Of a stretch of 64,000 bases of DNA, positions 4,533-40,361 are shown piece by piece (position 1 is the stretch's first letter; each line of letters opens with the position of its first letter). This DNA comes from Sphingomonas sanxanigenens (GTDB taxonomy: Bacteria > Pseudomonadota > Alphaproteobacteria > Sphingomonadales > Sphingomonadaceae). The stretch is from the NCBI GenBank assembly GCA_037190805.1, contig JBBCJR010000021.1:32735-96734 (forward strand), written 5' to 3'. Made by a program: the position numbers and the translations under genes. Below the pieces are notes generated by a model that saw only the letters and a program-made list of their open reading frames with translations, ran no database searches and was not told the DNA's origin.

Positions 4533-4655
4533 GGCGCTGAAACGGAATCGCGCGCCTTGCTCCGCAATCGGTGCCCGCGAATTTCCCTTTACGGCTTTCC
4601 TCCAGCGGCCGCGTCTTCCTCCTAGTTCACGCTTTGCAACGAGGAGGGCCATGCC

Positions 4656-5468
4656 ATGAACCCCACCGAACACCGCATGCTCGACATGCTCAAAAAGGGC
4701 CGTGATCACTATGGCGTGGTTGCCGTGAAAGCCGAATTCGAGGCAGAAGGCACACGCCCCGACGAGTTTTTGCGCCTCCTGGAAATTACGCGCCGCGCCG
4801 ACCTCAAGGTCGCGCTCAAGATCGGTGGCTGCGAGGCGATTTCCGACCTTCACGCCGCGCGCCTCTATGGCATTGACTACATCATCGCGCCGATGGTCGA
4901 GACGCCCTATGCGCTGACCAAGTTCGCCGACGCGCGCGACAAGGTGTTCGGTGCGGGGAAAAGCGACACCGACTTCCTGTTCAATCTCGAAACCGAAATG
5001 ACCCTTCAGGCTCTGGACGCGATGGTGCCGATCGCGCGCGAGCGGGTTGACGGGATCGTGTTCGGCCGCGTCGATTTCACCCTGTCGCGGGGCATGCCGC
5101 GCGGTGCGATCAACGACCGTTCGATCACCGATGCGGTGCTGATCACCGCCGAGGCGTGCCGTGCCAACGATCTGGAACTGGTGGTAGGCGGATCGGTCGC
5201 GGTCGAGGCGCTGGATGCGCTGCGTGAAATCCGCAGCGTTCGGCTCGACCGGTTCGAAACGCGCAAGGTCGTGTTCGACGGCGCAGCAGCGGAGGCGGCG
5301 GATTTCGAGGATGCGGTGGCCAATGCAGTGGCGTTCGAGCTTGCCTGGCTGGAGAACAAGGCGGACTATTACGGCGTTATCGCGGCGGAGGATCGTGCCC
5401 GCATCACGATGATGCGCGATCGCGCCGCCAAGGCCGCTCAGCGCCGACTGACCAGTGTGGCCGCCTGA
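4656..5468 (+). CDS. HpcH/HpaI aldolase / citrate-lyase-beta-like family protein
   Basis: 270 aa, with SD GAGGAGGG upstream. IIAPMVETPYAL and FGRVDF resemble motifs of the HpcH/HpaI-CitE fold. The family call is from memory only. Confidence 0.55.
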   Translation: MNPTEHRMLDMLKKGRDHYGVVAVKAEFEAEGTRPDEFLRLLEITRRADLKVALKIGGCEAISDLHAARLYGIDYIIAPMVETPYALTKFADARDKVFGAGKSDTDFLFNLETEMTLQALDAMVPIARERVDGIVFGRVDFTLSRGMPRGAINDRSITDAVLITAEACRANDLELVVGGSVAVEALDALREIRSVRLDRFETRKVVFDGAAAEAADFEDAVANAVAFELAWLENKADYYGVIAAEDRARITMMRDRAAKAAQRRLTSVAA

Positions 5469-5471
5469 GGC

Positions 5472-6302
5472 ATGGCGTTGCTGGCAGAGGTCGCCGCGCT
5501 GATGCGCGAGGTGGCGGAGGTCGCGGTGCTGCCGCGTTTCCGCAGTCTCGCCGCGCATGAGATTGTCGAGAAGAGTCCCGGTGAGCTGGTCACCAGCGCC
5601 GATCGCGAGGCCGAATTGCGCCTGCGTGACGGGCTTGACCGGCTCGGCGTCGGTGCGCGCGTGGTGGGGGAGGAGGCCGCCGCCGAAACTCCTGCGCTGC
5701 TCGACGGGATTGGTGATGGTCTTGTCTGGCTGGTCGATCCGCTCGATGGGACGGCCAATTTCGCTGCCGGGCGGGAACCGTTCGGGATGATGGTTGCGCT
5801 GGTCGATGATGGTGTGCCGATCGCCGGCTGGATGTTCGATCCGATCAGTGGCCGGATGTGCCAAGCGGCGCGTGGGCTGGGCGCGACGATCGACGGGGTT
5901 GCGGTGCGGACCCATATCCCGACCGGAACACAGCCGGTGGCGTCGCTCGCCACGCAGTTCATGTCGGCGGACCGCCGCGCGCGCGTTCATGCACGGGCGG
6001 AGCGCGACTTTACCCTGATGCCGATCCCGCGCTGCGCGGCGGAGAGCTATCCGCGGCTGGCGCTGGGGCAAAATCACGTTGCACTATTCCAGCGCATTCT
6101 GCCGTGGGATCACGCCGCCGGCGTGCTGTTCATCGAGGAGGCCGGCGGACGTGCGGCGCATTGGGACGGCCAGCCCTATCGCGTCGGCAGCGCCTCGTCG
6201 GGATTGCTGGTCGCTGCCAGCGAGGACCTCTGGGGCCACGCCGCGAAGAGTTTTCTCGACGCGGTTATCCCCGCACAGGCGCTGCAAGTTCTCGCCGCAT
6301 GA
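5472..6302 (+). CDS. Inositol-monophosphatase-family phosphatase
   Basis: 276 aa. IMPase signature WLVDPLDGTANF and a later WDHAAG. Starts 3 nt after the upstream stop. Confidence 0.8.
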   Translation: MALLAEVAALMREVAEVAVLPRFRSLAAHEIVEKSPGELVTSADREAELRLRDGLDRLGVGARVVGEEAAAETPALLDGIGDGLVWLVDPLDGTANFAAGREPFGMMVALVDDGVPIAGWMFDPISGRMCQAARGLGATIDGVAVRTHIPTGTQPVASLATQFMSADRRARVHARAERDFTLMPIPRCAAESYPRLALGQNHVALFQRILPWDHAAGVLFIEEAGGRAAHWDGQPYRVGSASSGLLVAASEDLWGHAAKSFLDAVIPAQALQVLAA

Positions 6303-8158
6303 TCCGGATCGTATTGTTTTGCGGCGTCTCGGCCGCGCTGACGCTGGTCTCCATGCCTGTTGCCGCCCAGTTCGTATCTCCCGTCGCGAGACAGGCGCAG
6401 GGGCAAGTGGCCGAGGGCCTGCGCGTCGCGCCCAATATCGCCGTCCCGCAGGTCGAGCCGTCCGCCGGTTATCAGCCGGCGGTGATCGAGACACCGGCAA
6501 TGCCCGCCGATCAGTCCGAGATGCCTGAAGCCGTAGCCCCAGCGCCGCGGACCGCCGAGACTCCCGGCAGCGAGTTCGAACGCTATGTGTCGAGCATCGC
6601 GGGCAAGCCGCTACGCCGCTTCGGCGCCGAGCTGCTCGTGCCCGAGGCGCGGGATTTCACCGCGCCCAGCACGGTTGCGGTGCCGGTCGATTATCGTATC
6701 AACCCTGGTGATCAGCTCCAGCTCGGCCTGACCGGGTCGGTGCAGTCGTCCGCGCGCCTGACCGTGGACAGCGAGGGGCGGGTGTTCGTGCCCCGCGTCG
6801 GAGCGATTACCGTTGGCGGTGTGCGCTATGGCGATGTGCGCGCGGTGATCGCCGATCAGGTATCGCGTCAGTATCGCGGGTTCGATCTCGAAGTGACCGT
6901 CGCCCGGCTGCGCGGCATCACCGTTTATGTGACGGGCTTCGCGCAGCGCCCAGGATCCTACACGGTCAGCAGTCTGTCGACCCTGGTCAATGCCGTGCTT
7001 GCGGCGGGCGGGCCGGCGGACGGCGGCAGCTTCCGTTCGATCCAGTTGCGCCGCGACGGGAATCTGGTCTCCGATTTCGATCTTTACGATCTGCTGCTCA
7101 ACGGGAACAAGACCGGCGATGCTGCGCTCCAGAACGGTGACGTCATCCATATCGCGCCGGCCGGCGCCCAGGTCGCGGTTGTCGGCAGCGTCAACCGCGA
7201 GGCGATCTTCGAGGTCGGTCCCGGCGAGACCCTGGCCGATGCCGTGCGCTATTCGGGCGGGCTCAGCACCGTCGCTGACGACAGCCGCTTGCTGGTCTTC
7301 GACTCGCTCGGGCGCACCAATGGCTGGCAGCAGCTGACATCAGCCGAGGCGGGGGTGCGGGTCGCCAGGCGCGGTGACATCGTCCGTGTTCTCTCGGACA
7401 TCGGCATCGCGCGTCCGGTCGGCACGCAGCCCGTGCTGGTCACGATCAGCGGCGAAGTGGCCAAGCCGGGACGCTATTACGTCACGCCTGGAACGCGCCT
7501 CGCGGACGTGGTGGCGCAGGCGGGTGGATTGACCGCGCAAGCCTTTCCTTATGCCGGCGTGATCACGCGCGAGAGCGTCAAGGCGCAGCAGCGCGAGAGT
7601 TTCGACCGCGCGATCAATGACATGGAGCTCCTGCTGACCACGCAGCCACTGGTTTCGGCCAATCGCGCGCAACTGTCCACGCCGGCCAACGCTCAGCTGA
7701 TCAACGCGGCGGTCGAACAGATGCGCAAGCGCGAGCCGACCGGCCGGCTGGTGTTCGACATGCCGGTGACGGCATCGGTGCTGCCAGGCGACCTCATCCT
7801 CGAGAACAATGATAGCGTTCATGTGCCGACGCGGCCGGTGACGATCGGCGTATTCGGCGCGGTCGCCAGCCCCGCGTCGTTCGCCTATCGCGAGGGTCAG
7901 AAGATCGGCGACGCGATCCGCACCGCCGGCGGCGTCCAGAAGCTGGGCGACAAGAGCGGGATCTTCGTGATCCGCGCCAACGGCACGGTGTTGTCCAACG
8001 GACGACGTGTGATTGGTGCGCCGGCGTTGCCGGGTGACCTGATCTATGTGCCGGTCGATGCCAGCCGCGGCGAATTCTGGGCACGGCTGCGCGATATCAC
8101 CAGCAGCATCTTCACGCCCGTGATCGGCGCCGCGACGATCAGGGCGGCGGTGCAATGA
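6299..8158 (+). CDS. Outer-membrane polysaccharide export protein (OPX; Poly_export plus SLBB-like repeats)
   Basis: In-frame ATG 6299 (ATGA overlap with the upstream stop) gives signal peptide MIRIVLFCGVSAALTLVSMPVAAQ. PVDYRINPGDQLQL is followed by repeated GDxIxVP-type segments (NGDVIHIAP, RGDIVRV, PGDLIYVP). I discarded the first 147 codons of the track ORF, which overlap the IMPase gene out of frame. Confidence 0.75.
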   Translation: MIRIVLFCGVSAALTLVSMPVAAQFVSPVARQAQGQVAEGLRVAPNIAVPQVEPSAGYQPAVIETPAMPADQSEMPEAVAPAPRTAETPGSEFERYVSSIAGKPLRRFGAELLVPEARDFTAPSTVAVPVDYRINPGDQLQLGLTGSVQSSARLTVDSEGRVFVPRVGAITVGGVRYGDVRAVIADQVSRQYRGFDLEVTVARLRGITVYVTGFAQRPGSYTVSSLSTLVNAVLAAGGPADGGSFRSIQLRRDGNLVSDFDLYDLLLNGNKTGDAALQNGDVIHIAPAGAQVAVVGSVNREAIFEVGPGETLADAVRYSGGLSTVADDSRLLVFDSLGRTNGWQQLTSAEAGVRVARRGDIVRVLSDIGIARPVGTQPVLVTISGEVAKPGRYYVTPGTRLADVVAQAGGLTAQAFPYAGVITRESVKAQQRESFDRAINDMELLLTTQPLVSANRAQLSTPANAQLINAAVEQMRKREPTGRLVFDMPVTASVLPGDLILENNDSVHVPTRPVTIGVFGAVASPASFAYREGQKIGDAIRTAGGVQKLGDKSGIFVIRANGTVLSNGRRVIGAPALPGDLIYVPVDASRGEFWARLRDITSSIFTPVIGAATIRAAVQ

Positions 8159-9273
8159 CCGTGATCCTCGAACGGGCGCGCATGGCGATCGCCGACGCGC
8201 GATGGCGGCGACGCGCCTATGTTGTGCTGATGCTGGTACTCGGGGTGCTATCCGTCGTGCCGCAGCCTTACATCGCCCGCGCCAAGATCGTGCCGCAGGA
8301 CAGCAACAGCATTGGCCTGGGGTCGATGATGAACGCGCTGGGTGGCCAGTTGCAGGGTTTCGCCGCGCTGCTCGGTGGGGCCAAGCAGCCGGTCGACCTT
8401 TACCTCGCGGTGGCGCGGGGCAGCGAGGTGACCACCGCGGTAATCCGTTCGCTCAAGCTCGATGGCCCCGACCAATATGGCTCTGACCGTGCCGCGCGGC
8501 TCAAGCTGCTAAAGAAGGTCGATATTCACTCGCTGACCGGCGGCGTTCTCGAAGTCGAGGCACGCACCCATGACCCGGTCGAGGCCGAGGCGCTGACCCG
8601 TGCCTATGTCGACGCGATCACCGCCCGGCTGAACACGCTTGGCCGCGACCGCGTCATGCGTAAGCGCCAGATCGTCATGGCTCGTTTTCGCGAGGCCGGG
8701 GAGCGTGTTGCCAAGGCTGAGACCGCGCTCACCGCCTTCCGCCGCGACAATAACCTCGCCGAGCCTGAGGCGCAGCTTGGCTCGGCGCTGTCGCTGCGCG
8801 CGGGTTTACAGGCGCAGCTTCAGGCTAAACTGGTGGAGCTGCAGACGCTCCAGCGCTTTCAGGGCGCCCAGAACCCGCAGCTTCAGGCTGTTCAGTCCGA
8901 GGTCGCGGCGCTGCGTCAGCAGATCGCGCGCAGTGCCGCGCCAAGCATCGATGCCGCCGGACCCAATGTCGCCGGCCTGTCGGAAACGTCGGGCCGTTAC
9001 CTCGATCTCTATCGTGACTATCGCTTTGCACAGGCGCTGTACGAGGTTTACTCGCGCTCGTCAGAGGAAGTGGCGGTCGAGGCGCTGGCAGCGGAGACCG
9101 CGTCGGACGCGCAGGTGATCGAAGCGGCGCACGTCGATCCCGACCGCAAGTATAATATTTCCGCCGTCGCATTGCTCGCTCTGGTGATTCTGCTTGCGGC
9201 CTTCACCGAGGTCTATGCGCCGGCAACCGGCATGCGGCTGCCGCTGATCGATGGCCGGAACCCGCGACCGTGA
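8155..9273 (+). CDS. Polysaccharide co-polymerase, KpsE/CtrB-like inner-membrane export protein (no kinase domain)
   Basis: 372 aa. N-terminal TM AYVVLMLVLGVLSVV, long Q/A/L-rich coiled coil (LQAQLQAKLVELQTLQ), C-terminal TM ISAVALLALVILLAAF. ATGA overlap with the OPX gene. Confidence 0.6.
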   Translation: MTVILERARMAIADARWRRRAYVVLMLVLGVLSVVPQPYIARAKIVPQDSNSIGLGSMMNALGGQLQGFAALLGGAKQPVDLYLAVARGSEVTTAVIRSLKLDGPDQYGSDRAARLKLLKKVDIHSLTGGVLEVEARTHDPVEAEALTRAYVDAITARLNTLGRDRVMRKRQIVMARFREAGERVAKAETALTAFRRDNNLAEPEAQLGSALSLRAGLQAQLQAKLVELQTLQRFQGAQNPQLQAVQSEVAALRQQIARSAAPSIDAAGPNVAGLSETSGRYLDLYRDYRFAQALYEVYSRSSEEVAVEALAAETASDAQVIEAAHVDPDRKYNISAVALLALVILLAAFTEVYAPATGMRLPLIDGRNPRP

Positions 9274-10211
9274 GCGACCCCGAACTGTCGGTGGTCATTC
9301 CGTGCTTCAACGAGGAAGAGAATGTCGCCGCGATCTGCCGCGCGGTGTGTGAGCAGGCCGAGCGCCATGCGGCGAGCTTTGAGATCATTCTCATAGACAA
9401 CCATTCGACGGACGGCACCCGTGCCATCATCCGCCAGCTGTGCAGCGAGGATCGCCGCATCCGGGCGATCTTCAACACCCGCAATTATGGCCAGATGCGC
9501 TCGCCGACCCATGGCATCTATCAGGCGCGGGGCAGTGCGGTGATCGGCATGTGCGCCGATTTCCAGGACCCTCCCGAGATGATCGGCGCGTTCGTGCGAC
9601 TGTGGCGTGGGGGGGCGAAGATCGTGCTCGGCCAGCGCCGCAGCGAGCGAGCGGGCCTGCTGCTCGGCGCGGTCCGCCGTGTGGGCTATGCGGTGCTCCG
9701 GGGGATCGCCGACCACCCGGTGATTCCCAACGTCACTGGTTTCGGGCTGTTCGACCGGCAGGTCGTCGACGCGCTGTCGCGCTGGAACGAGCCCGAGCCC
9801 TTCTTTCGCGGCATGCTGGTCGAAAGCGGCTTTTCGATCGCGCTGGTCCCCTTCGACCGGCCGCCGCGCGCGGCAGGGGAGACCAAGAACGGAATCGCGT
9901 CGCTGTTCGGCTTTGCCCTGTCGGGACTGTCAGGATCGGCCAAGGCTCTGTTGCGGTTGCCGATCACGCTCGCGCTCGTCTTCGGACCACTCACGCTTGC
10001 CCTGCTATTCGCCGGCTTGGGCGCGCTGCTGCTCGACGGCCCCGCGGCTCTGTTGCTGCTGCTCTCACTGGCGACCGGCATGTTCGCGACCCTGCTGCTG
10101 TTCGTCGGGTTGATCGGTGATCAGGTGCGTCTGATCGCCGAGCGGACTCGTGGCGTGCCGCTGGTGATCGAAGAAACGCGGCTCAACTTCCCGGCCGAGC
10201 CCGCCCCGTGA
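9270..10211 (+). CDS. Family-2 glycosyltransferase of the polyprenyl-phosphate glycosyltransferase type (GtrB/ArnC/DPM1-like)
   Basis: 313 aa. LSVVIPCFNEEENV, ILIDNHSTDGT and CADFQDPPE form the GT-A region. Two C-terminal TM helices follow (ITLALVFGPLTLALLFAGLGALLL, LLLLLSLATGMFATLLLFVGLIG). GTG start with GTGA overlap. Confidence 0.8.
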   Translation: MSDPELSVVIPCFNEEENVAAICRAVCEQAERHAASFEIILIDNHSTDGTRAIIRQLCSEDRRIRAIFNTRNYGQMRSPTHGIYQARGSAVIGMCADFQDPPEMIGAFVRLWRGGAKIVLGQRRSERAGLLLGAVRRVGYAVLRGIADHPVIPNVTGFGLFDRQVVDALSRWNEPEPFFRGMLVESGFSIALVPFDRPPRAAGETKNGIASLFGFALSGLSGSAKALLRLPITLALVFGPLTLALLFAGLGALLLDGPAALLLLLSLATGMFATLLLFVGLIGDQVRLIAERTRGVPLVIEETRLNFPAEPAP

Positions 10212-11500
10212 AGCGCCGCGCGGTCCCGGTGGTCGAGACGCTGCTGGCGCTGGCGGTGATCGCCTGCGCCTTGTCGATGGCGATGCAGTTCGCCGCGCGC
10301 GGCTATCTGCCGCAGCCGTTCGTCTTCGATACCAACGATACCTTCATGGACTGGTTCAACACCGCCTTCTGGGCGAACCGACCGGGTGCCTATGATGTCT
10401 GGCGCAGCATCTACCCACCGCTGTCGTTCGCGTTCCTCGACCTGTTCAGCCTGCCCGGTTGCTATCTGAGTTCGCCATTCCATGCGCGCGATTGCGACTG
10501 GCTGGGGAGGGGTGTGATTGCCTTCTTCTACCTGCTCGACGTCGCCCTGGCGGGTGTTGCCTTCCATCGCACCGATCCCCGCACCGCGATCCAGCGCACC
10601 ATCGCCTTCGGGCTCGGCCTGCCGCTGCTGTTCACGCTGGAGCGCGGCAATTTGATTCTCGTCTGCCTTGCGGCATTCATTGTCGCCTATGGGCCGATCA
10701 CCCGCTCGCCGTGGTGGCGCGCGCTGGCGACGGCGATCACGATCAATTTCAAGCCCTATCTGGTTATCCCCACCTTCGCCCTGGCGCTGCGCCGCGAGTG
10801 GCGGCCGCTGGAACTGGCGGCAATCGCCACCGTCGCCCTCTATCTCGTCACCCTTGCTATCGTCGGCGCCGGAACGCCCGGCGAGTTGGCCAGCAATACC
10901 GCCAACTGGGTCGTGTTCCAGAGCGGGCAGGTGTGGGGCGAGATCCATTATTCGACCAGCTATGCCCCCCTGCTGCTGGTGCGGGCGTCGCAGATTCCGG
11001 TGCTGGAGTTCGTGTCGTCGCGACTGATCGAGGGGATCGAGGGCGCGGTGCCGATCATCATCCGTTCGACCCAGCTTGTCGCGCTTGCCTGCATCGCTGC
11101 GGCCTGGTTGCAGCCGCGGGCGCTGTCCCACGCCAGGCTGGGGGCGCTGCTGCTGGGCGCCTATATCGTCGGGCAATCGCCGGGCGGCTATACGCAGACC
11201 TTCCTGCTGTTCCTGGTTTTCCTCGAACCCTGGAAGGGGATCGGGCCGGGACTGGCGTTGATCTCGGCCTATCTGCTCAGCTTGGTCGTCGAATGGCCGC
11301 TGTCGACCGTGCTGGAAGTAAGCGGCAACAGCTGGCTTAGCGGACAGCCGGTGGTTGCCGGCTTCGGCCTCGCCGTGGGACATTTCGTGCGACCGGGACT
11401 GATCGCGCTGATCGTGTGGGGACTGGCGCTGGACGGTCTGATCAAGGTCGGCCGCGCGCATCGCGAGCGAGCGCCGGTCGCGGGACTGGCGCTGTCATGA
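10208..11500 (+). CDS. Polytopic integral membrane protein, candidate GT-C-like (DUF2029/GT87-like) transferase or polymerase
   Basis: 430 aa with roughly 10-12 hydrophobic segments and no soluble domain. The first loop FVFDTNDTFMDWF is acidic, as in GT-C enzymes. GTGA overlap upstream and ATGA overlap downstream. Family assignment is uncertain. Confidence 0.5.
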   Translation: MKRRAVPVVETLLALAVIACALSMAMQFAARGYLPQPFVFDTNDTFMDWFNTAFWANRPGAYDVWRSIYPPLSFAFLDLFSLPGCYLSSPFHARDCDWLGRGVIAFFYLLDVALAGVAFHRTDPRTAIQRTIAFGLGLPLLFTLERGNLILVCLAAFIVAYGPITRSPWWRALATAITINFKPYLVIPTFALALRREWRPLELAAIATVALYLVTLAIVGAGTPGELASNTANWVVFQSGQVWGEIHYSTSYAPLLLVRASQIPVLEFVSSRLIEGIEGAVPIIIRSTQLVALACIAAAWLQPRALSHARLGALLLGAYIVGQSPGGYTQTFLLFLVFLEPWKGIGPGLALISAYLLSLVVEWPLSTVLEVSGNSWLSGQPVVAGFGLAVGHFVRPGLIALIVWGLALDGLIKVGRAHRERAPVAGLALS

Positions 11501-12507: not shown

Positions 12508-14327
12508 CGACCACGATCAAGCTTTCCGACTGGGTGGCCGACTGGCTGACTGCCCATGGCATCGAGCAGGTGTTCATGCTCACCGGTGGCGGGGCCATGC
12601 ATCTCAACCACTCGATCGGCACCAATCCGGGCCTGAAGACGCTTTTCGCGCATCACGAGCAAGCACTGGCGATGGCGGCGGAGGCCTATGCGCGGCTGAC
12701 CAACCGGCCGGCGGTGGTCAACGTCACCTCTGGGCCCGGCGGTACCAACGCCATCACCGGCGTTTATGGCGCCTATGTCGATTCGATCCCGATGCTGGTG
12801 ATCTCGGGCCAGGTGAAGCGCGAGACGACGGTGCGATCGACCGGGCTGGCGCTGCGCCAGCTGGGGGATCAGGAACTGGATATCGAGGAGTTGGTCCGTC
12901 CGATAACCAAATATGCGGTGATGGTCACCGATCCGCTGACCATCCGCTACCATCTCGAAAAGGCGCTGCATCTTGCGACGACCGGCCGGCCGGGGCCGGT
13001 GTGGATCGACATCCCGCTGGACGTGCAGGCGACGCGGATCGATCCGGCGGACCTGACGGGCTTCGATCCCGCCGAGCTCGACGAACCATGGCGGCGTGAC
13101 GATCTGGCGGAGGTGGCGGCCGAAATCCTGGATCGGCTCGCCAGGGCCGAACGCCCGGTGGTGTTCGCTGGCGGCGGGGTGCGGCTGAGCGGCGCCTATG
13201 CAGGGTTTCTTGCGCTGATCGAGCGGCTGGGGGTGCCGGTCGTGACCGGGTGGAACGCGCACGATGTGCTGTGGAACGATCACCCGCTCTATGCCGGCCG
13301 GCCGGGGACGGTGGGAGACCGCGGCGGCAATATGGTGACGCAGAGCGCCGACCTGCTGCTGGTGCTTGGCAGCCGGCTCAATATCCGGCAGGTCAGCTAT
13401 AACTGGAGCAGCTTCGCACGGGCCGCCTACAAGATCTGGGTCGATATCGACCCGCTGGAACTGGAGAAGCCGACCGTCCGCCCGGACATGCCGGTGGTCG
13501 CCGATCTTGCCGAGTTGATCCCCGCGCTGCTCGATTCCCCCTATGCCGGGCCGACCGAGGCGCATGGTGCATGGCTCGATTGGGCACGTCAGCGCGTTGC
13601 GAACTTTCCGGTCGTCCAACCCGACTATCACGATCATGGCCCGACCAACCATCCGTACGTGGCGATGGAGGCATTGTTCGAAGCCCTCACCGACACCGAC
13701 GTGGTGGTGACGGGTAACGGCAGTGCCTGCGTGGTCAGCTTTCAGGCCGCCAGGCTTCAGCGCGGCCAGCGGCTGTGGACCAATTCGGGCTGTGCGACGA
13801 TGGGCTATGATCTGCCCGCCGCCATCGGCGTGTCAGCCGCGATCGGGCCTGACCGCCGCGTGATCTGCATCGCCGGCGACGGCAGCATCATGATGAACCT
13901 GCAAGAGATGCAGACGATCGCCGGCTACGGCCTGCCGGTGAAGGTTTTTCTCATCAACAATGCTGGTTATGTTTCGATCTTCCAAACCCATCGCAACTTC
14001 TTCAATGGCGTCGAAGTCGGTGGCGGGCCCAAGAGCAATGTCACCTTCCCGAGTTTCGAACGCATCGCCGACGCCTTCGGCTTCGCCTATGCGCGCGCCG
14101 AGAGGCATGATGATCTGGCCCAGGCGATCGCCGTGACCCTCGACGCGCCTGGCCCGGCCTTGTGCGAGATCATCGTCGACGAGAACGTCGTCTTCGCGCC
14201 CAAGCTCGGGGCGAAGCCACATCCCGACGGCCGCATCACGTCGCCGCCGCTCGAGGATCTGTCGCCGTTCCTGCCGCGTGAGGTGCTGGCCGCGAACATG
14301 GCCATTCCCCTGGTGGAGGAGGCATGA
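12504..14327 (+). CDS. Thiamine-diphosphate-dependent three-domain enzyme (acetolactate-synthase-like; YerE-like candidate)
   Basis: 607 aa from ATG 12504 (ATGA overlap); ATG 12495 is also possible. Canonical ThDP motif GDGSIMMNLQEMQTIAGYGLPVKVFLINNAGY. No ilvN/ilvC-like neighbours; the gene is embedded in sugar genes. Confidence 0.8.
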   Translation: MTTTIKLSDWVADWLTAHGIEQVFMLTGGGAMHLNHSIGTNPGLKTLFAHHEQALAMAAEAYARLTNRPAVVNVTSGPGGTNAITGVYGAYVDSIPMLVISGQVKRETTVRSTGLALRQLGDQELDIEELVRPITKYAVMVTDPLTIRYHLEKALHLATTGRPGPVWIDIPLDVQATRIDPADLTGFDPAELDEPWRRDDLAEVAAEILDRLARAERPVVFAGGGVRLSGAYAGFLALIERLGVPVVTGWNAHDVLWNDHPLYAGRPGTVGDRGGNMVTQSADLLLVLGSRLNIRQVSYNWSSFARAAYKIWVDIDPLELEKPTVRPDMPVVADLAELIPALLDSPYAGPTEAHGAWLDWARQRVANFPVVQPDYHDHGPTNHPYVAMEALFEALTDTDVVVTGNGSACVVSFQAARLQRGQRLWTNSGCATMGYDLPAAIGVSAAIGPDRRVICIAGDGSIMMNLQEMQTIAGYGLPVKVFLINNAGYVSIFQTHRNFFNGVEVGGGPKSNVTFPSFERIADAFGFAYARAERHDDLAQAIAVTLDAPGPALCEIIVDENVVFAPKLGAKPHPDGRITSPPLEDLSPFLPREVLAANMAIPLVEEA

Positions 14328-14731
14328 GCGCCGCTGTGCCACGGGATCGCCACACCCCAATCCGGTTCGTTGCCGCTGGCGCGCTCAACACGATCGTCGG
14401 CTTGTCAGTCTATCCGCTGCTGCTGTGGAGCGTGCCCGTCCTTCACAACCGCTATATGGTGGCGCTGCTGATCGCCCAGGCGGTTTGCCTGTGCTTTGCC
14501 TTCATGACCTACAAGCTCGGCGTGTTCCGCACGCGCGGCAATCTGGTTCGCGAGTTCGGCGCCTTTTCAAGCTATTACCTGTTCAACTACGCCGCCAACT
14601 GGGTGGTGCTGCCCTTGCTCGTCGAGATTGCCGGCCTGTCGCCGATCATTGCGCAATTCGGCTTCACCCTCATCCTGATCGTCGGGAGCTGGCTATGGCA
14701 CAGCCGCGTCACGTTTCGGAAGACGACATGA
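14324..14731 (+). CDS. GtrA-family small membrane protein
   Basis: 135 aa with four hydrophobic segments. N-terminus RFVAAGALNTIVGLSVYPLL is typical of GtrA-like proteins. ATGA overlaps on both sides. Confidence 0.75.
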   Translation: MSAAVPRDRHTPIRFVAAGALNTIVGLSVYPLLLWSVPVLHNRYMVALLIAQAVCLCFAFMTYKLGVFRTRGNLVREFGAFSSYYLFNYAANWVVLPLLVEIAGLSPIIAQFGFTLILIVGSWLWHSRVTFRKTT

Positions 14732-15693
14732 TCCGCCCCGCCTTGCGCGATCGGGCCTGTCCGCTGTGCGGGGAACGCGATGCGGTCCCTGCGATGTCGA
14801 GTTCGCTCTGCGCGGAGGAATGCACGCTCGACGAACTGCGGCCTTTCTGGTTCGGCATCGATCGGGCCAAGTATTTCTTCACCTATCACCGCTGCGTGGC
14901 ATGTGGCCTGCTCTACAACCCGGTGTTCTTCGACGACGCGCAGCTGGGCGACTTGTATTCGGCGATGCCGCCCAACATGGATCTGGTAGCGAGCGACGCG
15001 ATCGCTGCCACCCAGCGCGGCTACTTCGACGCGGCGGCCGGGCGTGGCGCGCTCGATGGCGGCTATCTCGAGATCGGGCCGGACATCGGCTATATGGTCG
15101 GCGAAGCGGCGAGGCGAGGGCGTTTCGACCACTTCTGGCTGTTCGAGCCCAATCGTGCGGTACATGACGTGCTGCACGCTGCCAGCGCCGGTCGGCCGAC
15201 CACGATCCTGCCGGACATGACCGACCTTTCGGCTGTTCCCGACCGCAGTATCGGCCTGGCTGTGATGGTGCATGTGCTCGACCATCTGCTCGATCCGGTA
15301 ACCATGATCGAGGCGATCCGCGCCAAGCTGCGTCCCGGCGGCACCCTCCTGATCGTGACGCATGACGAGCGTTCGATGCTTAGCCGTGTGCTCGGAGCGC
15401 ACTGGCCGCCCTTCTGCCTCCAGCATCCCGAACTCTACAATCCGCGGACCATTCGGCAGCTGCTGGCGCGTGCTGGACTGCCGGGCGCCGAGGTCAGCCG
15501 CTCGCGCAATTATTTCCCGATCGATTTCCTCGCACGTCAGGCCGCATTGGCGCTCGGCGTGCGATTGAACCGGGTGCCGTTGCCCAGGCGCGCGATCGGG
15601 CTGCGCCTGGGCAATATCCTGACCATGGCGACGAACGCCGTTCAGGCGGCGGCGATAACGCGCCCTGCAGCGGAACTGGAAAGCGCGGCGTAA
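14728..15693 (+). CDS. Class I SAM-dependent methyltransferase with N-terminal Cys4 zinc-ribbon-like motif
   Basis: 321 aa from ATG 14728. Cys pairs CPLCGE ... CVACGLLYNP, then SAM motif I YLEIGPDIGYM and LRPGGTLLIV. Confidence 0.75.
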   Translation: MIRPALRDRACPLCGERDAVPAMSSSLCAEECTLDELRPFWFGIDRAKYFFTYHRCVACGLLYNPVFFDDAQLGDLYSAMPPNMDLVASDAIAATQRGYFDAAAGRGALDGGYLEIGPDIGYMVGEAARRGRFDHFWLFEPNRAVHDVLHAASAGRPTTILPDMTDLSAVPDRSIGLAVMVHVLDHLLDPVTMIEAIRAKLRPGGTLLIVTHDERSMLSRVLGAHWPPFCLQHPELYNPRTIRQLLARAGLPGAEVSRSRNYFPIDFLARQAALALGVRLNRVPLPRRAIGLRLGNILTMATNAVQAAAITRPAAELESAA

Positions 15694-16730
15694 CGGGTAA
15701 TCTGGTCGAGTGTGACCGCGCGAGCGTCCGCGCCGTCGCCCACCGACTTGTGCCAGGCGACGATCCAGTCGATCGCTTCGCCCAGGGTCAGTGCCGGTCG
15801 CCAGCCGAGCGCGGCCCGCGCGCGGGAGCTGTCGAGCCGCAACAAGCCCGCTTCATGCGGACGCGGCGTGCTGTCGAGCACTGGCGCCGCCGCGCCATCC
15901 GCCCAGGCGGCGCGCATCCGCTCCACGATCCAGCGCACTGGCTGCGCGTCATCGTCCGAGGGGCCGAAATTCCACGCATCGGCAAAGCGCCGTTCGCCCA
16001 CCAGCAATCGCTCGGCGATCCGAATATATCCACCCAGCGCTTCCAGCACATGCTGCCACGGGCGCACCGAGTCAGGCGAGCGGATCAGCGGCGGGGCATC
16101 GGCCTCGAACGCGCGGACGAGATCGGGGATCAGGCGATCGCCCGCCCAGTCGCCGCCGCCGATGACATTGCCGGCGCGTACCGATGCGACGCTGGGACCG
16201 TCGACCTGGAAATAGGAATTGCGATAGGCGGCCACGACCAGTTCGGCGCAGCCCTTGCTGCTGCTGTAGGGGTCGTGGCCGCCCATCGGATCGCTTTCGC
16301 GATAAGGCCATTCCCACTCGCGATTGGCGTAGCATTTGTCGCTGGTCACGCAGATCACGCCGGCGACGCCGCCCGCTCGACGTACGGCCTCGAGAAGATG
16401 AACCGTTCCCATCACGTTCGCGGCATAGGTCTCGACCGGCTCGACATAGGACAGCCGCACCAACGGCTGGGCGGCAAGATGGAATATGATCTCGGGTCGC
16501 GCGCGATCCACCACCGCGCGCATCGCGGCGAGGTCGCGGATGTCGCCCTCGACATGATCGATCAGCGCGTCGATCCGGGCGCTTTCAAACAGGCTTGGAG
16601 TGGTTGGTGGCGGCAGTGCGAAGCCGGTTACCCTCGCGCCCATTGCCTGGAGCCACAGGGTCAGCCAACTGCCCTTAAAACCCGTGTGTCCGGTGATGAG
16701 GACGCGGCGGCCATCCCAGGGCGCGCTCAC
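15642..16730 (-). CDS. rfbG: CDP-glucose 4,6-dehydratase
   Basis: GTG 16730 (GTGA overlap with the rfbF stop) gives VSAPWDGRRVLITGHTGFKGSWL. Catalytic PYSSSKGCAE. I discarded the upstream 50 codons of the track ORF. Confidence 0.85.
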   Translation of the reverse strand: MSAPWDGRRVLITGHTGFKGSWLTLWLQAMGARVTGFALPPPTTPSLFESARIDALIDHVEGDIRDLAAMRAVVDRARPEIIFHLAAQPLVRLSYVEPVETYAANVMGTVHLLEAVRRAGGVAGVICVTSDKCYANREWEWPYRESDPMGGHDPYSSSKGCAELVVAAYRNSYFQVDGPSVASVRAGNVIGGGDWAGDRLIPDLVRAFEADAPPLIRSPDSVRPWQHVLEALGGYIRIAERLLVGERRFADAWNFGPSDDDAQPVRWIVERMRAAWADGAAAPVLDSTPRPHEAGLLRLDSSRARAALGWRPALTLGEAIDWIVAWHKSVGDGADARAVTLDQITRYAALSSSAAGRVIAAA

Positions 16731-17500
16731 CAGCGCTTCCACGGGGCCTTGCCGGATTGCCACAGGCCGTCGAGATGAACCTTGTCGCGCAGCGTATCCA
16801 TCGGATGCCAGAATCCGTCGTGGCGATAACCCATCAACTCGCCCCCGGTCGCGAGCTGTTCGAGCGGTCCGGCTTCCCATACCGTATCCGGCCCGTCGAC
16901 CAGGTCGAGCACGCTGGGATGGGCGACGAAGAAGCCGCCGTTGATCTGCCCGCCATCGCCAGCCGGCTTTTCCCGGAAGGCAGCGATGCGCGTGCCGTCA
17001 TATTCAAGCGAGCCGAAACGGCCGGGCGGGGTGACCGATGTGATGGTGGCGCGCTGCTTGTGGGCTTTGTGAAAGCGGACCAGATCGCCGATGTCGATAT
17101 CGGCCACACCGTCGCCATAGGTGAAGCAGAACGGCTCGTCGGGATCGAGATAGTCGCGGATCGCCGCCAGCCGGCCGCCGGTCATCGTGTTCGCGCCGGT
17201 TTCGACCAGTGTGATCCGCCACGGCTCGCTGCCCGCGCGATGCACCTCCAGCCCGTTGCCGCCGCGCAGGTCGATCGTCACGTCCGCCGTGTGCAGGAAG
17301 TAGTTCGCGAAATATTCCTTGATCAGATAGCCCTTGTATCCAAGGCAGATCACGAAGTCGTTGAAGCCGGCGGACGAATAGATTTTCATGATGTGCCACA
17401 GGATCGGCATACCGCCGATCTCGACCATTGGCTTCGGCCGCACCGCGGTCTCCTCGCCGAGCCGGCTGCCCAGGCCGCCGGCCAAAATAACGGTCTGCAT
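16727..17500 (-). CDS. rfbF: Glucose-1-phosphate cytidylyltransferase
   Basis: ATG 17500 preceded by SD GGAGGAA. MQTVILAGGLGSRLGEET...KPMVEIGGMPILWHIMK is near-canonical RfbF. The upstream part of the 505-aa track ORF is antisense to the GT-C gene. Confidence 0.9.
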   Translation of the reverse strand: MQTVILAGGLGSRLGEETAVRPKPMVEIGGMPILWHIMKIYSSAGFNDFVICLGYKGYLIKEYFANYFLHTADVTIDLRGGNGLEVHRAGSEPWRITLVETGANTMTGGRLAAIRDYLDPDEPFCFTYGDGVADIDIGDLVRFHKAHKQRATITSVTPPGRFGSLEYDGTRIAAFREKPAGDGGQINGGFFVAHPSVLDLVDGPDTVWEAGPLEQLATGGELMGYRHDGFWHPMDTLRDKVHLDGLWQSGKAPWKRW

Positions 17501-17563
17501 GGTTCCTCCGCAAAAATGCTCACTGCGATGACGGAAACAGGCCGGCGTCTCCGTAATGGGGAT

Positions 17564-19255
17564 ATGAGCATCGATGTCGAACGGCCGCGGCTGTGGCTTT
17601 GCCTGGTCCTGCTGGCCGCGACGGCGCTGCGGATGTGGCACATCGGCTTCGGCCTGCCGTCGCTCAACGATCCGGACGAGCCGCTGTTCGTGATGAAGGC
17701 GCTCGATCTGCTGCGCGAGGGGGCGATCAACCCCGGATGGTTCGGACATCCCGCGACGACACTGTTTTACGCGCTGGCGGTGTTGTTCGCGTTGATCGCG
17801 GCGCTTGGCATGGCGCTGGGCGCGTGGGCATCGCCGGCGGCGTTCGCAGCGGCGGTATTCGCCGATCCGGGTATGATCGTGTTGCCGGGGCGGGTGATGA
17901 TCGCCTTGGTGGGGATCGCTTCGGTCGCCTTGGTCTATTGTATCGGTCGCCGAGTGGCGGGTGCGCGCGCCGGGCTGGTCGCTGCGGCGCTGCTCGCGGT
18001 CAGCCCGCTGCATGTCGAGCTGTCGCAGACCATCCGTACCGACGTTCCCGCGACCGCGCTGATGCTGCTCAGCAGCTTCTATGCGGTGCGTGTCGCGCAG
18101 GGTGGCCGCCTGCGCGATATCCTGTTGGCAGGGATGGCGGCGGGGGTGGCATGTGCCACCAAGTGGCCGGCGGCGCTGGTGCTTGCCTCCGTCGAAGCTG
18201 CGGTTCTGATGCGGGTCGTCGACGGACGGCAGCGTATCGCCCATCTAATTGTCGCCCCGATCGTTGCCGTGATCACCTTGCTGCTCGTCTCGCCTTTCCT
18301 GATCCTCGACTATGCGACGGTCGTGCACGACCTCGGCGGCGAGGCGCGCGGGTTTCATCTGGGCGCGACGGGGGCGGGATGGGCGAGCAATTTCGTGTGG
18401 TATCTCGTCAACCCGATCAGCACCGCCCTGGGTGTGGCCGGACTGGTCTTGGCGGCGGCGGGTTTGACCGTCTCGTTCAGGCGGGATCGGACCATGGCGC
18501 TGGCCCTGTTCGCTGCGCCCGTGATCTTCCTGATCGCGATCAGCGGCCAGGCTTTGATCTGGGAGCGCTGGGCCGTGCCGCTGCTGCCCTATGCGGCGCT
18601 CGCAGCGGCCCTGGGCCTGGACTGGGTGGTCAAGCGGTTCGCCGGATCGCGACAGAATCTCATGGGAACGATCATCGCTTTGCTGGTCTGCGCCCCGATC
18701 CTCGTTTCCTGTGTCATGCGCACGCAGGAGCGCAGCATCGATACGCGTCAGGCGGCGAGCGTCTGGCTGCGCGACCATGTCGACCCCGGCGCTTCCGTGC
18801 TGATCGAGCATGCAGGCTTCGATCTGCTCGAACGGCCGGGCCGGGTGCTGTTTCCGCTCGGCGCGCAAGGGTGCATCGACGTGCGCGCCGCATTGTCGGG
18901 GCGGCCGACCTTCGAAGCGACCGGTGAGGCGCGTGGGGAGCGGCCGATCATCGACATCGGCAATGTCGATCCGGGCCGTCTGGCGACCTGCCGCGCCGAC
19001 TATGCGATCCTGTCCCACTACAGCCGCTATGCGGCGGAACAGGCCCGGTTTCCGCTTCCGACATGCCTCTATCGTGCTTTGCTGCGCAATGGACAGATCG
19101 TGGCGAGCTTCGCGCCGGAGACGGGGCGTCGCGGCGGTCCTGACGTGCAGGTCGTCCGTCTCGCTCCTCAGGACTTCGACGCGCCGGCGAGCTGTATCGT
19201 CGAAGGGCGAAACGCGACACGCGCCCACGAGTTGAAGGCAAGATCCCAGGATTAG
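17564..19255 (+). CDS. GT-C fold glycosyltransferase, family 39/83-like (ArnT/PMT-like)
   Basis: ATG 17564 (ATG 17528 possible). 563 aa, many TM segments, then a soluble C-terminal domain of about 190 aa. The first loop LNDPDEPLF carries the acidic motif seen in ArnT/PMT enzymes. Divergent from rfbF across 63 bp. Confidence 0.75.
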   Translation: MSIDVERPRLWLCLVLLAATALRMWHIGFGLPSLNDPDEPLFVMKALDLLREGAINPGWFGHPATTLFYALAVLFALIAALGMALGAWASPAAFAAAVFADPGMIVLPGRVMIALVGIASVALVYCIGRRVAGARAGLVAAALLAVSPLHVELSQTIRTDVPATALMLLSSFYAVRVAQGGRLRDILLAGMAAGVACATKWPAALVLASVEAAVLMRVVDGRQRIAHLIVAPIVAVITLLLVSPFLILDYATVVHDLGGEARGFHLGATGAGWASNFVWYLVNPISTALGVAGLVLAAAGLTVSFRRDRTMALALFAAPVIFLIAISGQALIWERWAVPLLPYAALAAALGLDWVVKRFAGSRQNLMGTIIALLVCAPILVSCVMRTQERSIDTRQAASVWLRDHVDPGASVLIEHAGFDLLERPGRVLFPLGAQGCIDVRAALSGRPTFEATGEARGERPIIDIGNVDPGRLATCRADYAILSHYSRYAAEQARFPLPTCLYRALLRNGQIVASFAPETGRRGGPDVQVVRLAPQDFDAPASCIVEGRNATRAHELKARSQD

Positions 19256-19279: not shown

Positions 19280-19666
19280 TTATCGAGGATGTATCCGGGC
19301 AAGCGCTATACCTGCGAGATTCTGGGACCGCTTGACGTGCCGGATACGGAGCGGGGAGGGGCCGCTGCTCAGTTTTCTCAATGTCGACAGGTACCGGGCG
19401 GACGTGCCTTTGCACTTCGCCTCGCTGTTCGCCTGCCTGACGACCGCGAGCGAGTCACCGAGGAAGATCGGGTCGGTCAGTTCCAGCACTTGCGCGACTT
19501 CGATCGCGTGGATCAGCGCCAGCCACTCGGCATCCATGCTTGTTCCCGAACCGAGGTTGCGCCGAAGATGGACTTGTCCCTTCACGACCACGGCGGTTTC
19601 CATTCCGGTCGGGCTGGGTCGACACCCGCCATCGAAATAGACTTTCAATCGGGACTGCACTGCCAT
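19280..19666 (-). CDS. Small RNase H-like (RVT_3-type) protein
   Basis: 128 aa. Acidic residues in YFDGGC, DAEWLAL and LGDSL, with an [11 protein letters not shown] tail, as in RNase H-fold small proteins. Confidence 0.65.
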
Positions 19667-40355: not shown

Positions 40356-40361
40356 CGTACG

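Follow-up and report, generated by a model that had tools for sequence, protein, structure and literature searches.

A locus of thirteen contiguous genes (g1–g13) tiles positions 4656–19255 of the 64 000-nucleotide stretch of Sphingomonas sanxanigenens DNA analysed here (contig JBBCJR010000021.1; the whole stretch is referred to as the window). Its products are predicted to make an acyl-branched CDP-sugar, to load this sugar onto a lipid-phosphate carrier and to use it outside the cytoplasm by means of two GT-C membrane glycosyltransferases, encoded together with an outer-membrane polysaccharide export (OPX) protein and a polysaccharide co-polymerase (PCP)-like protein. The branched-sugar part of this model is well supported by homology, and the lipid-carrier step is supported by the architecture of the predicted proteins. 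For polymerisation by the GT-C enzymes followed by PCP/OPX export of a surface glycan, which we infer from genomics, the chances appear about even. The textbook routes to Gram-negative surface polysaccharides are the Wzx/Wzy, ATP-binding cassette (ABC) transporter and synthase pathways, and by its predicted gene content the locus belongs to none of them. The embedding of a PCP/OPX pair together with a second GT-C is a combination not found in the literature searched, and the sugar part appears to join the known acyl-branched sugar pathways with a step, assigned to an inositol monophosphatase (IMPase)-like protein, that lies outside the published scheme.

Organisation of the locus

The genes were delimited from the open reading frame (ORF) listing and its translations. 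Genes g1–g10 lie on the + strand, and most of their junctions are 4-bp stop/start overlaps, which suggests that they form a single operon. The genes for the CDP-sugar precursor, rfbG (g11) and rfbF (g12), follow on the − strand, convergent to this operon, and the 3′ ends of rfbG and of the methyltransferase gene g10 overlap by 52 bp (15642–15693). Gene g13 is again on the + strand, divergent from rfbF. The locus is bounded upstream by a gene for an M23 peptidase (3936–4532, − strand; Pfam/NCBIfam) and downstream by an RNase H-like ORF (19280–19666, − strand) and an rluE-like gene (domain scans). An earlier interpretation made from the letters alone (the sequence-only reading) had placed a thirteen-gene locus between these two blocks, and the ORF listing and the domain scans bear this out. 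Its gene assignments were all reproduced with Pfam and NCBIfam, those of rfbF and rfbG above the equivalog cut-offs and that of the PCP below threshold.

Searches with Pfam and NCBIfam detected no phosphoglycosyltransferase (PGT), Wzx, Wzy, ABC exporter, synthase or soluble glycosyltransferase (GT) in the locus, and as the interval is tiled by the thirteen genes, a PGT, Wzx, Wzy or ABC gene could not lie hidden in it. No glycan assembly gene was found in 20 further window ORFs scanned between 24.9 and 61.6 kb; these encode TonB receptors, a penicillin amidase, a usher/spore-coat-protein-U (SCPU) system, two-component systems, a resistance–nodulation–division (RND) pump and, as the sole ABC system among them, a binding-protein-dependent importer (49.8–53.4 kb). 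The lack of initiation, flippase/polymerase, ABC and synthase components, as read from the sequence earlier, thus holds for the thirteen products and for these 20 ORFs.

Conservation of the locus and of a nine-gene cassette

In a genome collection, 272 relatives of the thiamine diphosphate (ThDP)-dependent enzyme g8 were found, and the best 80 loci are nearly all from Sphingomonadaceae. The closest relatives among these 80 are from Sphingobium (81–86 % identity), in line with the sphingomonad host that had been suspected. Full 10-kb flanks were available for 50 sphingomonad loci and five others (55 full-flank loci). All thirteen genes and the upstream M23 peptidase gene are syntenic at 40–90 % amino-acid identity (tblastn) in Sphingobium, Sphingomonas, Novosphingobium, Sphingopyxis, Croceibacterium, Altererythrobacter and Sphingosinicella, and the synteny ends right after g13. 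The genes for the OPX, the PCP and the GT87-like GT-C (g3, g4 and g6) are present in 48 of the 50 full-flank sphingomonad loci, and that for the PMT_2 GT-C (g13) in 46. Because the whole set is syntenic across sphingomonad genera, it is not a chance juxtaposition; judged by gene order, the locus is conserved and vertically inherited, unlike hypervariable O-antigen or capsule loci.

Nine of the predicted genes, namely rfbF, rfbG and those for the aldolase, the ThDP enzyme, a short-chain dehydrogenase/reductase (SDR), the methyltransferase, GtrA, a GT2 and a GT-C, form one recurrent cassette, which was seen in Rhodopseudomonas palustris, Bradyrhizobium, Rhizobium, Burkholderiales and Sulfuricaulis. 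The five non-sphingomonad loci with full flanks from the same scan came from a Burkholderiales metagenome-assembled genome (MAG), Ottowia, a Verrucomicrobiia MAG, Rhizobium and Bradyrhizobium. The whole nine-gene set is present in three of them (Burkholderiales MAG, Rhizobium, Bradyrhizobium) and partial in the Ottowia and Verrucomicrobiia loci, the latter with no GT87-like or GtrA gene detected. The IMPase-like, OPX, PCP and PMT_2 genes are absent from all five, and by this comparison the OPX, the KpsE-like PCP and the second GT-C (PMT_2) are sphingomonad-specific additions. A neighbourhood comparison, proposed in the sequence-only reading as a check, therefore gives the whole set as syntenic in sphingomonads and its nine-gene part as recurring elsewhere. 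The description of the locus as a mixture of three assembly logics was overstated, the CDP-sugar genes and the GT2/GtrA/GT-C genes being one recurrent cassette.

The R. palustris locus recovered here holds orthologs of these nine window genes at 28–68 % identity (g8 68 %, g1 55 %, g7 55 % and g10 46 %), the GT-C being the GT87-like one. An OPX, a KpsE-like PCP and a PMT_2 GT-C are missing from it, and it differs further in an adh_short and dehydroquinate synthase (DHQS)-like pair in place of the IMPase-like protein, in extra soluble GT2s, in a Wzx-like protein and in a small bitopic protein. A putative CGA009 cluster comprising aldolase, ThDP enzyme, reductase and methyltransferase genes has been named on bioinformatic grounds only (PMC9306805). 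The O-antigen of this strain consists of one C4-branched sugar that keeps its 3-OH group and is 3-O-methylated (Marchetti et al. 2018; PMC9306805). These two features of the sugar fit a cluster without ddhC and ddhD and with a methyltransferase gene. The R. palustris product is ligated to lipopolysaccharide (LPS), which sphingomonads lack. That the combination of genes is undescribed, as had been claimed, holds in part: nine of the thirteen genes occur in the R. palustris locus, a part of which has been proposed, not proven, as an O-antigen sugar cluster, whereas no paper on the full set was found in the literature searched and the OPX/PCP/PMT_2/IMPase part is undescribed there. Nothing relevant was found in the same literature on the locus itself or on GT87/DUF2029 proteins in O-antigen synthesis.

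Predicted formation of the branched sugar

The glucose-1-phosphate cytidylyltransferase RfbF/DdhA (g12, 16727..17500, − strand, 257 aa) matches TIGR02623 with 419 bits against a cut-off of 300, and the CDP-glucose 4,6-dehydratase RfbG/DdhB (g11, 15642..16730, − strand, 362 aa) matches TIGR02622 with 480 bits against a cut-off of 278; both lie above the NCBIfam equivalog cut-offs. A supply of CDP-4-keto-6-deoxyglucose encoded by rfbF and rfbG is a well-supported prediction. No ddhC or ddhD gene is present in the locus, and therefore the 3-OH group of the sugar should be kept. The unusual CDP-derived sugar postulated from the sequence agrees with the two equivalog matches and with the presence of an acyl-branched sugar gene set.

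The C4 acyl-branched sugars erwiniose, caryophyllose and gastriose are made in three steps, in which a pyruvate aldolase provides a functionalised 2-keto acid, a ThDP enzyme ligates the acyl unit to the C4 keto group of a CDP-keto-deoxyhexose and a reductase follows (Steitz et al. 2022; PMC9306805). The pathways to yersiniose (YerE/YerF), erwiniose (ErwI/J/E/F), caryophyllose (MMAR_2331/2332) and gastriose (MyGE) share with the present locus the predicted CDP-4-keto-deoxyhexose acceptor, the pyruvate aldolase that makes the donor and, as proposed for g8 and g7, the ThDP carboligase and the NAD(P)H reductase; MMAR_2331, which is needed for caryophyllose, belongs like g1 to the aldolase/citrate-lyase family (PMC9306805). 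They differ in that their sugars are 3,6-dideoxy at the core, the 3-deoxygenation genes being missing from the present locus, and in that the published scheme has no IMPase-like phosphatase.

The candidate aldolase g1 (4656..5468, + strand, 270 aa) is of the HpcH/HpaI class II type. Its Pfam HpcH_HpaI score is marginal (27.7 bits, cut-off 25); its family profile matches the YfaU, HpaI and GarL aldolase structures in the PDB. Residues E112 and D140 are invariant and align with the 'vqvES' and 'GpaDls' segments of YfaU, which we take to hold the metal ligands, so that E112 and D140 are candidate ligands. A phmmer search of g1, g6 and g13 against PDB sequences gave nothing useful, and the listed homologs of g1 and of g6 are all close sphingomonad orthologs, with no distant relatives among the matches listed. 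By domain and profile g1 corresponds to the pyruvate aldolase of the acyl-branched sugar pathway, and its proposed product is a 2-keto-3-deoxy acid that serves as donor of the branch. An HpcH-like gene is found in the non-sphingomonad cassettes and therefore travels with the sugar genes; it is kept in all of them save one, the metagenomic locus L086, in which a NeuB/PseI-like phosphoenolpyruvate-dependent synthase (6002–7093) takes the place of the HpcH-type aldolase. The replacement of the aldolase by a NeuB-like keto-acid synthase fits a keto-acid-forming role.

The ThDP-dependent carboligase g8 (12495..14327, + strand, 610 aa; the start on record, 12504, gives 607 aa) has all three Pfam TPP_enzyme domains (N, M and C) and scores below all NCBIfam acetolactate synthase cut-offs. 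Its proposed role is to join the acyl branch to CDP-4-keto-6-deoxyglucose at C4; the sequence set against g8 for this assignment was that of the R. palustris ThDP enzyme. The extended SDR g7 (11497..12507, + strand, 336 aa; Pfam Epimerase, 122 bits), whose gene immediately precedes that of the ThDP enzyme in every locus, is proposed as the acyl-branch reductase, the counterpart of YerF/ErwF.

The S-adenosylmethionine-dependent methyltransferase g10 (14695..15693, + strand; 332 or 321 aa, with the start at 14695 or 14728, respectively) has a Methyltransf_23 domain (Pfam, 65 bits) and an N-terminal four-Cys motif. About a third of the sphingomonad loci genuinely lack its gene (L006, L010, L011, L021, L023, L029, L043, L046, L048, L052 and others); in these loci rfbG comes directly after the GtrA gene. 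Because of this absence, methylation of the sugar looks like an optional, strain-variable step.

An IMPase-like gene or an adh_short and DHQS-like pair

Gene g2 (5472..6302, + strand, 276 aa) encodes an IMPase/CysQ/HisN-superfamily phosphatase with a Pfam Inositol_P score of 135 bits and lies below every NCBIfam equivalog cut-off. A role of this CysQ-like protein in sulfation was considered and rejected, as no sulfotransferase is present in the locus. The IMPase-like gene alone occurs in 48 of the 55 full-flank loci and the adh_short and DHQS-like pair alone in six; no locus has both, and one has neither. This exclusivity holds also where the genes sit at other positions (L034, L035). The pair lies between the aldolase and the SDR genes in R. 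palustris and in all other non-sphingomonad cassettes, and it is found in a minority of the sphingomonad loci, from which the IMPase-like gene is absent (loci listed for the alternation: L025, L034, L035, L037, L044, L056–L058, L074, L075, L077–L080 and L083–L087). The nearest annotation found for the DHQS-like protein is 'AroB-related sugar phosphate phospholyase'.

Because the IMPase-like gene and the pair never co-occur in the 55 loci, they may be two ways of removing phosphate from the same intermediate, and g2 is proposed to dephosphorylate a phosphorylated branch intermediate. The aldolase product would then be a 2-keto-3-deoxy acid with a terminal phosphate, similar to 3-deoxy-D-arabino-heptulosonate 7-phosphate (DAHP) and formed, for example, from pyruvate and a tetrose phosphate. 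Elimination of the phosphate by the DHQS-like enzyme and reduction by the short-chain reductase would lead to the terminal methyl group of a caryophyllose-type branch, whose structure we take from the systematic name of caryophyllose; hydrolysis of the phosphate by the IMPase-like protein would lead to a terminal CH2OH group. The HpcH-like g1 and the IMPase-like g2 at the operon head need not be seen as unexplained additions; both would find a place in sugar synthesis by the aldolase, ThDP enzyme and reductase scheme. Another idea, in which the DHQS-like protein forms a carbocycle of the bradyrhizose or caryose type and the IMPase-like protein marks the non-cyclising variant, was dropped, as R. 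palustris carries a DHQS-like gene; in the literature read, its sugar is described as C4-branched and caryophyllose-like only.

Proposed lipid-carrier step and predicted GT-C enzymes

The GtrB/DPM1/ArnC-type GT2 g5 (9270..10211, + strand, 313 aa) scores 89.5 bits with Pfam Glycos_transf_2, and its best NCBIfam matches, PgfS (111 bits, cut-off 500) and ArnC (66 bits), are both sub-threshold. Its hydrophobic segments are confined to the C-terminal residues 226–284 (hydropathy), so that a GT-A domain is followed by helices as in the GtrB/DPM1 architecture. No multi-pass processive GT2 synthase with a channel was found, g5 being the sole GT2 of the locus. We propose that g5 is an undecaprenyl-phosphate branched-sugar synthase. 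The small membrane protein g9 (14324..14731, + strand, 135 aa) belongs to the GtrA family (Pfam GtrA_DPMS_TM, 58.7 bits; about 4 hydrophobic segments) and is proposed to be the flippase for the lipid-linked sugar.

An ortholog of g5 accompanies the sugar genes in every cassette examined. A DPM-like GT2 gene together with a GT87-like gene was found in eight of nine non-sphingomonad contexts (R. palustris and seven other cassettes hold orthologs of g6) and a GtrA gene in seven; GtrA is kept in most cassettes, none being detected in L077 or L078. From this company the branched sugar seems always to be delivered via a lipid-phosphate carrier. In mycobacterial lipooligosaccharide clusters, which also hold the caryophyllose pathway, DPM-like GT2s have likewise been proposed as makers of polyprenol-linked donors.

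The membrane protein g6 (10208..11500, + strand, 430 aa) has a marginal Pfam GT87 score of 25.8 bits. An AlphaFold2 (AF2) model built with 30 homologs (pLDDT 75, pTM 0.83) has PimE (9dm5) as its best fold match in the PDB, with a probability of 1.0, an E value of 9e-5 and a TM score of 0.48–0.53 at a sequence identity of 14–16 %; PIG-U, AglB and ArnT follow, and WzxE and MurJ remain below a probability of 0.1. Residues D41, D44 and D48, just after the first membrane helix, are invariant in the 30-homolog alignment. The modelled fold thus identifies g6 as a GT-C enzyme rather than a Wzy; a plain Wzy at this place had been named in the sequence-only reading as a case that would overturn it, and the match to PimE speaks otherwise. 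We propose g6 as the elongating enzyme or polymerase. The PimE (GT87) fold relates the predicted protein to the mycobacterial PimE, Mpt, Emb and Aft enzymes. Mycobacterial GT-Cs build polymers outside the cytoplasm from monosaccharide lipid donors, arabinan being an example of such extracytoplasmic polymerisation (PMC11127046). The present locus differs in its Gram-negative setting, in its predicted sugar and in the proposed export through an OPX channel.

The second GT-C, g13 (17564..19255, + strand, 563 aa from 17564; alternative starts 17516 and 17528), is PMT_2/ArnT-like (Pfam PMT_2, 62.5 bits; PMT, 33.6 bits), with about 12 hydrophobic segments and a C-terminal soluble domain (hydropathy). 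It is proposed to be the priming or attaching enzyme. This PMT_2 GT-C is confined to sphingomonads, and one may speculate that it is the enzyme by which the first residue is attached to a sphingomonad-specific acceptor.

These assignments bear on the notion that a conventional pathway is hidden in the locus, with one of the membrane proteins in truth a Wzy, a Wzx or a synthase, or with modules that are unrelated neighbours. The marginal Pfam scores of g6 and g1 leave some space for it, whereas the PimE match of the g6 model, the PMT_2 score of g13, the GtrB/DPM1 rather than multi-pass synthase architecture of g5, the synteny of the thirteen genes across genera, the 4-bp overlaps at most junctions within g1–g10 and the end of synteny just outside the locus stand against it; we regard this explanation as largely refuted and very improbable.

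A modification of short glycans was considered as well, in which the GT-Cs would attach a single branched sugar, or a small number of them, to envelope proteins or to the head groups of glycosphingolipids in the manner of ArnT, Rgt or the Streptococcus mutans Pgf system. The Pgf system consists of PgfS, two GT-C membrane proteins and an epimerase/SDR (PgfS, PgfM1, PgfE, PgfM2). PgfS of this protein glycosylation system is the best NCBIfam match of g5, g13 is PMT_2/PMT-like, and a sphingomonad-specific g13 could recognise a sphingomonad-specific acceptor; sphingomonads, for their part, have glycosphingolipids but no LPS. The PgfS match falls well short of its cut-off, however, and Pgf is a Gram-positive system without OPX/PCP and without CDP branched-sugar genes. 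To our knowledge, the glycosphingolipid structures reported from sphingomonads contain no such sugar. Overall this modification of short glycans seems improbable to us. Its corollary, that the OPX/PCP pair serves a linked function such as the movement of a glycolipid to the outer membrane, is similarly hard to credit, as we know of OPX/PCP pairs only for high-molecular-weight polymers.

Putative export pair

The OPX protein g3 (6299..8158, + strand, 619 aa) has a Poly_export domain, four SLBB domains (Pfam) and an N-terminal signal-like hydrophobic segment; its gene overlaps g2 and g4 by 4 bp each. The protein g4 (8155..9273, + strand, 372 aa) is a putative bitopic inner-membrane PCP of the kinase-less KpsE/CtrB/BexC-like type, with hydrophobic segments at residues 21–42 and 331–359 (hydropathy). 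Its match to TIGR01010 (BexC/CtrB/KpsE) has an E value of 1.8e-15 and, with 57 bits, lies far below the cut-off of 437; there is no Pfam match at E ≤ 0.01, a GNVR match is sub-threshold and the single-sequence AF2 model is poor (pLDDT 53). Both genes are embedded in the operon between sugar genes and the GT2 gene. With the group 2 KpsMTED capsule system the locus shares a multi-SLBB OPX sized like KpsD (about 560 aa) and, in g4, a putative kinase-less bitopic PCP whose best family is BexC/CtrB/KpsE. It differs in that the KpsM/KpsT ABC exporter and the KpsC/KpsS linker transferases were found neither in the locus nor in the scanned window ORFs and in that the PCP score is far sub-threshold.

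In other lineages the GT87-like gene is immediately followed by a gene for a protein of 220–320 aa. Three of these proteins were checked by hydropathy and all are bitopic, and weak Wzz matches were obtained for those of L085 and L087. A comparison by hhalign of the g4 family with the small bitopic proteins after the GT87-like genes of R. palustris, Bradyrhizobium and Rhizobium gave a probability of 0.5 %; a single family is not supported by this result, and the shared topology is what they have in common.

Proposed assembly and export

In the proposed pathway RfbF and RfbG would form CDP-4-keto-6-deoxy-D-glucose. The aldolase g1 would form a 2-keto-3-deoxy acid from pyruvate and an aldehyde that is probably a tetrose phosphate, and g2 would remove the phosphate from it. 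The ThDP enzyme g8 would decarboxylate the keto acid and ligate the acyl group to C4 of the CDP-keto sugar, g7 would reduce the branch carbonyl and g10 would O-methylate the product. This would be a C4-branched higher sugar of the caryophyllose/erwiniose class, close to the O-antigen sugar of R. palustris CGA009 and probably with a terminal CH2OH in place of CH3. The branch step draws on homology and literature, and its details are deduced. The sugar would be transferred to undecaprenyl phosphate (Und-P) by g5 and flipped to the periplasmic face by the GtrA protein g9. The GT-C g13 would put the first residue on an acceptor, possibly a glycosphingolipid or another lipid, and g6 would act as a polymerase that extends the chain from Und-P-sugar donors; the PCP g4 and the OPX g3 would control and perform export across the outer membrane. 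With polymerisation in the periplasm, no PGT, Wzx, Wzy, ABC transporter or cytoplasmic GT would be needed.

The combination of GT2, GtrA and GT-C in the locus, with two GT-Cs, is the one that characterises three-component glycosylation in the periplasm (Kelly et al. 2024; PMC11127046). Systems of this kind (GtrA/GtrB/Gtr*, ArnC/ArnT, Rgt and the pentofuranose systems; PMC11127046) share with it the GT2 polyprenyl-phosphate synthase, the small flippase and the GT-C, and they modify a glycan from a primary pathway, of which none was found in the present locus or in the scanned window ORFs; the locus has, by comparison, two GT-Cs, PCP/OPX in the operon and a CDP-sugar donor instead of a UDP-sugar. 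The GT-Cs may accordingly be seen as enzymes that add single side residues to a polymer built elsewhere by a Wzx/Wzy or ABC system and exported by the OPX/PCP pair. The exact hallmark set of post-polymerisation glycosylation is present, every characterised Gram-negative example decorates (PMC11127046) and separate Wzx/Wzy clusters exist in sphingomonads. Yet such systems are normally variable and serotype-specific, whereas the present locus is conserved and syntenic across genera, and an export pair between sugar genes and GT2 would be unexpected in a mere decoration module. Known sphingomonad backbone clusters have their own Wza/Wzc, the related R. palustris cassette goes with an O-antigen of this sugar only, and other lineages have a Wzz-like gene next to, and downstream of, the GT87-like one. 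We consider decoration of this kind unlikely, if still to be reckoned with.

Polymerisation by the GT-Cs is favoured because no other GT of the locus makes glycosidic bonds beyond lipid loading (nor was another GT found in the scanned window ORFs, so that the GT-Cs alone could form them), because the OPX/PCP pair lies inside the operon and is kept in 48 of the 50 sphingomonad loci, and because a bitopic or weakly Wzz-matching protein follows the GT87-like gene in other lineages. Two further reasons are that the R. palustris O-antigen consists of this one sugar and that other sphingomonad polysaccharide clusters bring their own Wza/Wzc. The promonan cluster of Sphingomonas LM7, considered as a relative of the locus, is an unrelated Wzx/Wzy system.

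Several points weigh against polymerisation and export as proposed. PimE itself adds one mannose. The PCP assignment of g4 is sub-threshold, and a link to the Wzz-like proteins of other cassettes is undetectable. Soluble GT2s and a Wzx-like protein are encoded in the R. palustris locus as well, and in LPS-bearing cassettes such proteins may build the primer or the chain conventionally. The literature search brought up no sphingomonad polysaccharide that contains a sugar of this kind, the absence of PGT, Wzx/Wzy and KpsMT covers the locus and the scanned window ORFs rather than the whole genome, and both the nature of the aldehyde and the stage at which dephosphorylation would occur are deduced only. 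Moreover, the GtrA/GtrB/GT-C systems so far described from Gram-negative bacteria all attach single side residues and do not make polymers (PMC11127046).

A more specific form of the proposal is put forward tentatively: the sphingomonad PimE-like GT-C may be a periplasmic polymerase that builds a homopolymer from Und-P monosaccharides with a PCP/Wzz-like partner and an OPX channel, and R. palustris and other Proteobacteria may use an LPS-linked form of the system. The polymer would be a conserved 'common antigen' of the LPS-less sphingomonads composed of a 12-carbon C4-branched sugar, an identification to which we give somewhat less than an even chance. That neither PGT nor Wzx/Wzy, ABC transporter or synthase is used, so that the route would be an undescribed one in Gram-negative bacteria, is in the same way possible rather than probable. 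As a whole, the earlier interpretation of the locus is supported in part and has become more specific.

Cassette variants, gene calls and neighbouring DNA

Several cassettes of other lineages have further features. A 435–443-aa membrane protein is conserved in LPS-bearing cassettes (L083, 18910–20241; L079, 14325–15647; L085, 20088–21395) and has a sub-threshold 'O-unit flippase-like' match (NF041503, E 1.6e-18), and the extra soluble GT2s are found in the R. palustris and Rhizobium cassettes. Large membrane proteins without a Pfam family are encoded in L080 (1047 aa and 546 aa) and L087 (558 aa). In L086 the GT87-like domain makes up the C-terminal portion of a protein of 667 aa (13259–15262), and FkbH-like, MaoC, adh_short and MBOAT genes lie downstream. 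The Bradyrhizobium canariense locus L080 has eleven genes at 4289–15494 (rfbF, rfbG, aldolase, adh_short, DHQS-like, SDR, ThDP, GtrA, methyltransferase, GT2 and GT87); the bradyrhizose O-antigen of photosynthetic Bradyrhizobium is reported to require an eleven-gene 'sugar modification' operon with a glucose 4,6-dehydratase (PMC4743980).

The gene calls on record for a contig with an identical g6 protein match those used here, only the starts of g8, g10 and g13 being different. An exact look-up of the g8 protein from 12495 gave no match, the call on record starting three codons later. Identical g1 and g6 proteins were found on short Logan contigs only. A scan of the locus for promoters and terminators gave a site count not above that of shuffled sequence.

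Upstream of the M23 peptidase gene lie genes for an extracytoplasmic function (ECF)-type sigma factor (3355–3906, − strand) and a FecR-like protein (2353–3327, − strand), whose synteny with the glycan locus is seen in about 30 genomes of sphingomonads, and a long ORF (3–2420, − strand) that may encode a TonB-dependent receptor. In the gene calls on record, the downstream RNase H-like ORF has a length of just 85 aa and contains an RVT_3 domain; its scores with RNase HI models fall far short of the cut-offs, and its position beside the locus is not conserved in other genomes. Between 23000 and 24500 of the window the G+C content falls to 0.54–0.57, as against about 0.65 elsewhere, and long ORFs are few; this may be foreign or non-coding DNA. 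A cluster of the chaperone-usher type (39606–43711) contains an outer-membrane usher (40362–42725) and an SCPU domain protein (42716–43711).

Conclusions

The sugar part of the locus, taken alone, predicts a new acyl-branched sugar in widespread environmental and plant-associated bacteria, and it links the locus to a known but genetically unexplained O-antigen. The alternation of the IMPase-like and DHQS-like genes suggests how the end of the branch becomes hydroxy or deoxy, and the ThDP carboligases and aldolases are of interest for biocatalysis. If the full proposal is true, it would add a fourth route to the known ones, in which GT-Cs polymerise lipid-phosphate-linked monosaccharides outside the cytoplasm, a logic so far known from the mycobacterial cell wall, and the chain is passed to a PCP/OPX exporter. 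The assembly of homopolymeric O-antigens of rare branched sugars, in R. palustris and possibly in caryophyllan-type polymers, would then become testable, as would the question of what the surface of the LPS-less sphingomonads carries beyond glycosphingolipids.

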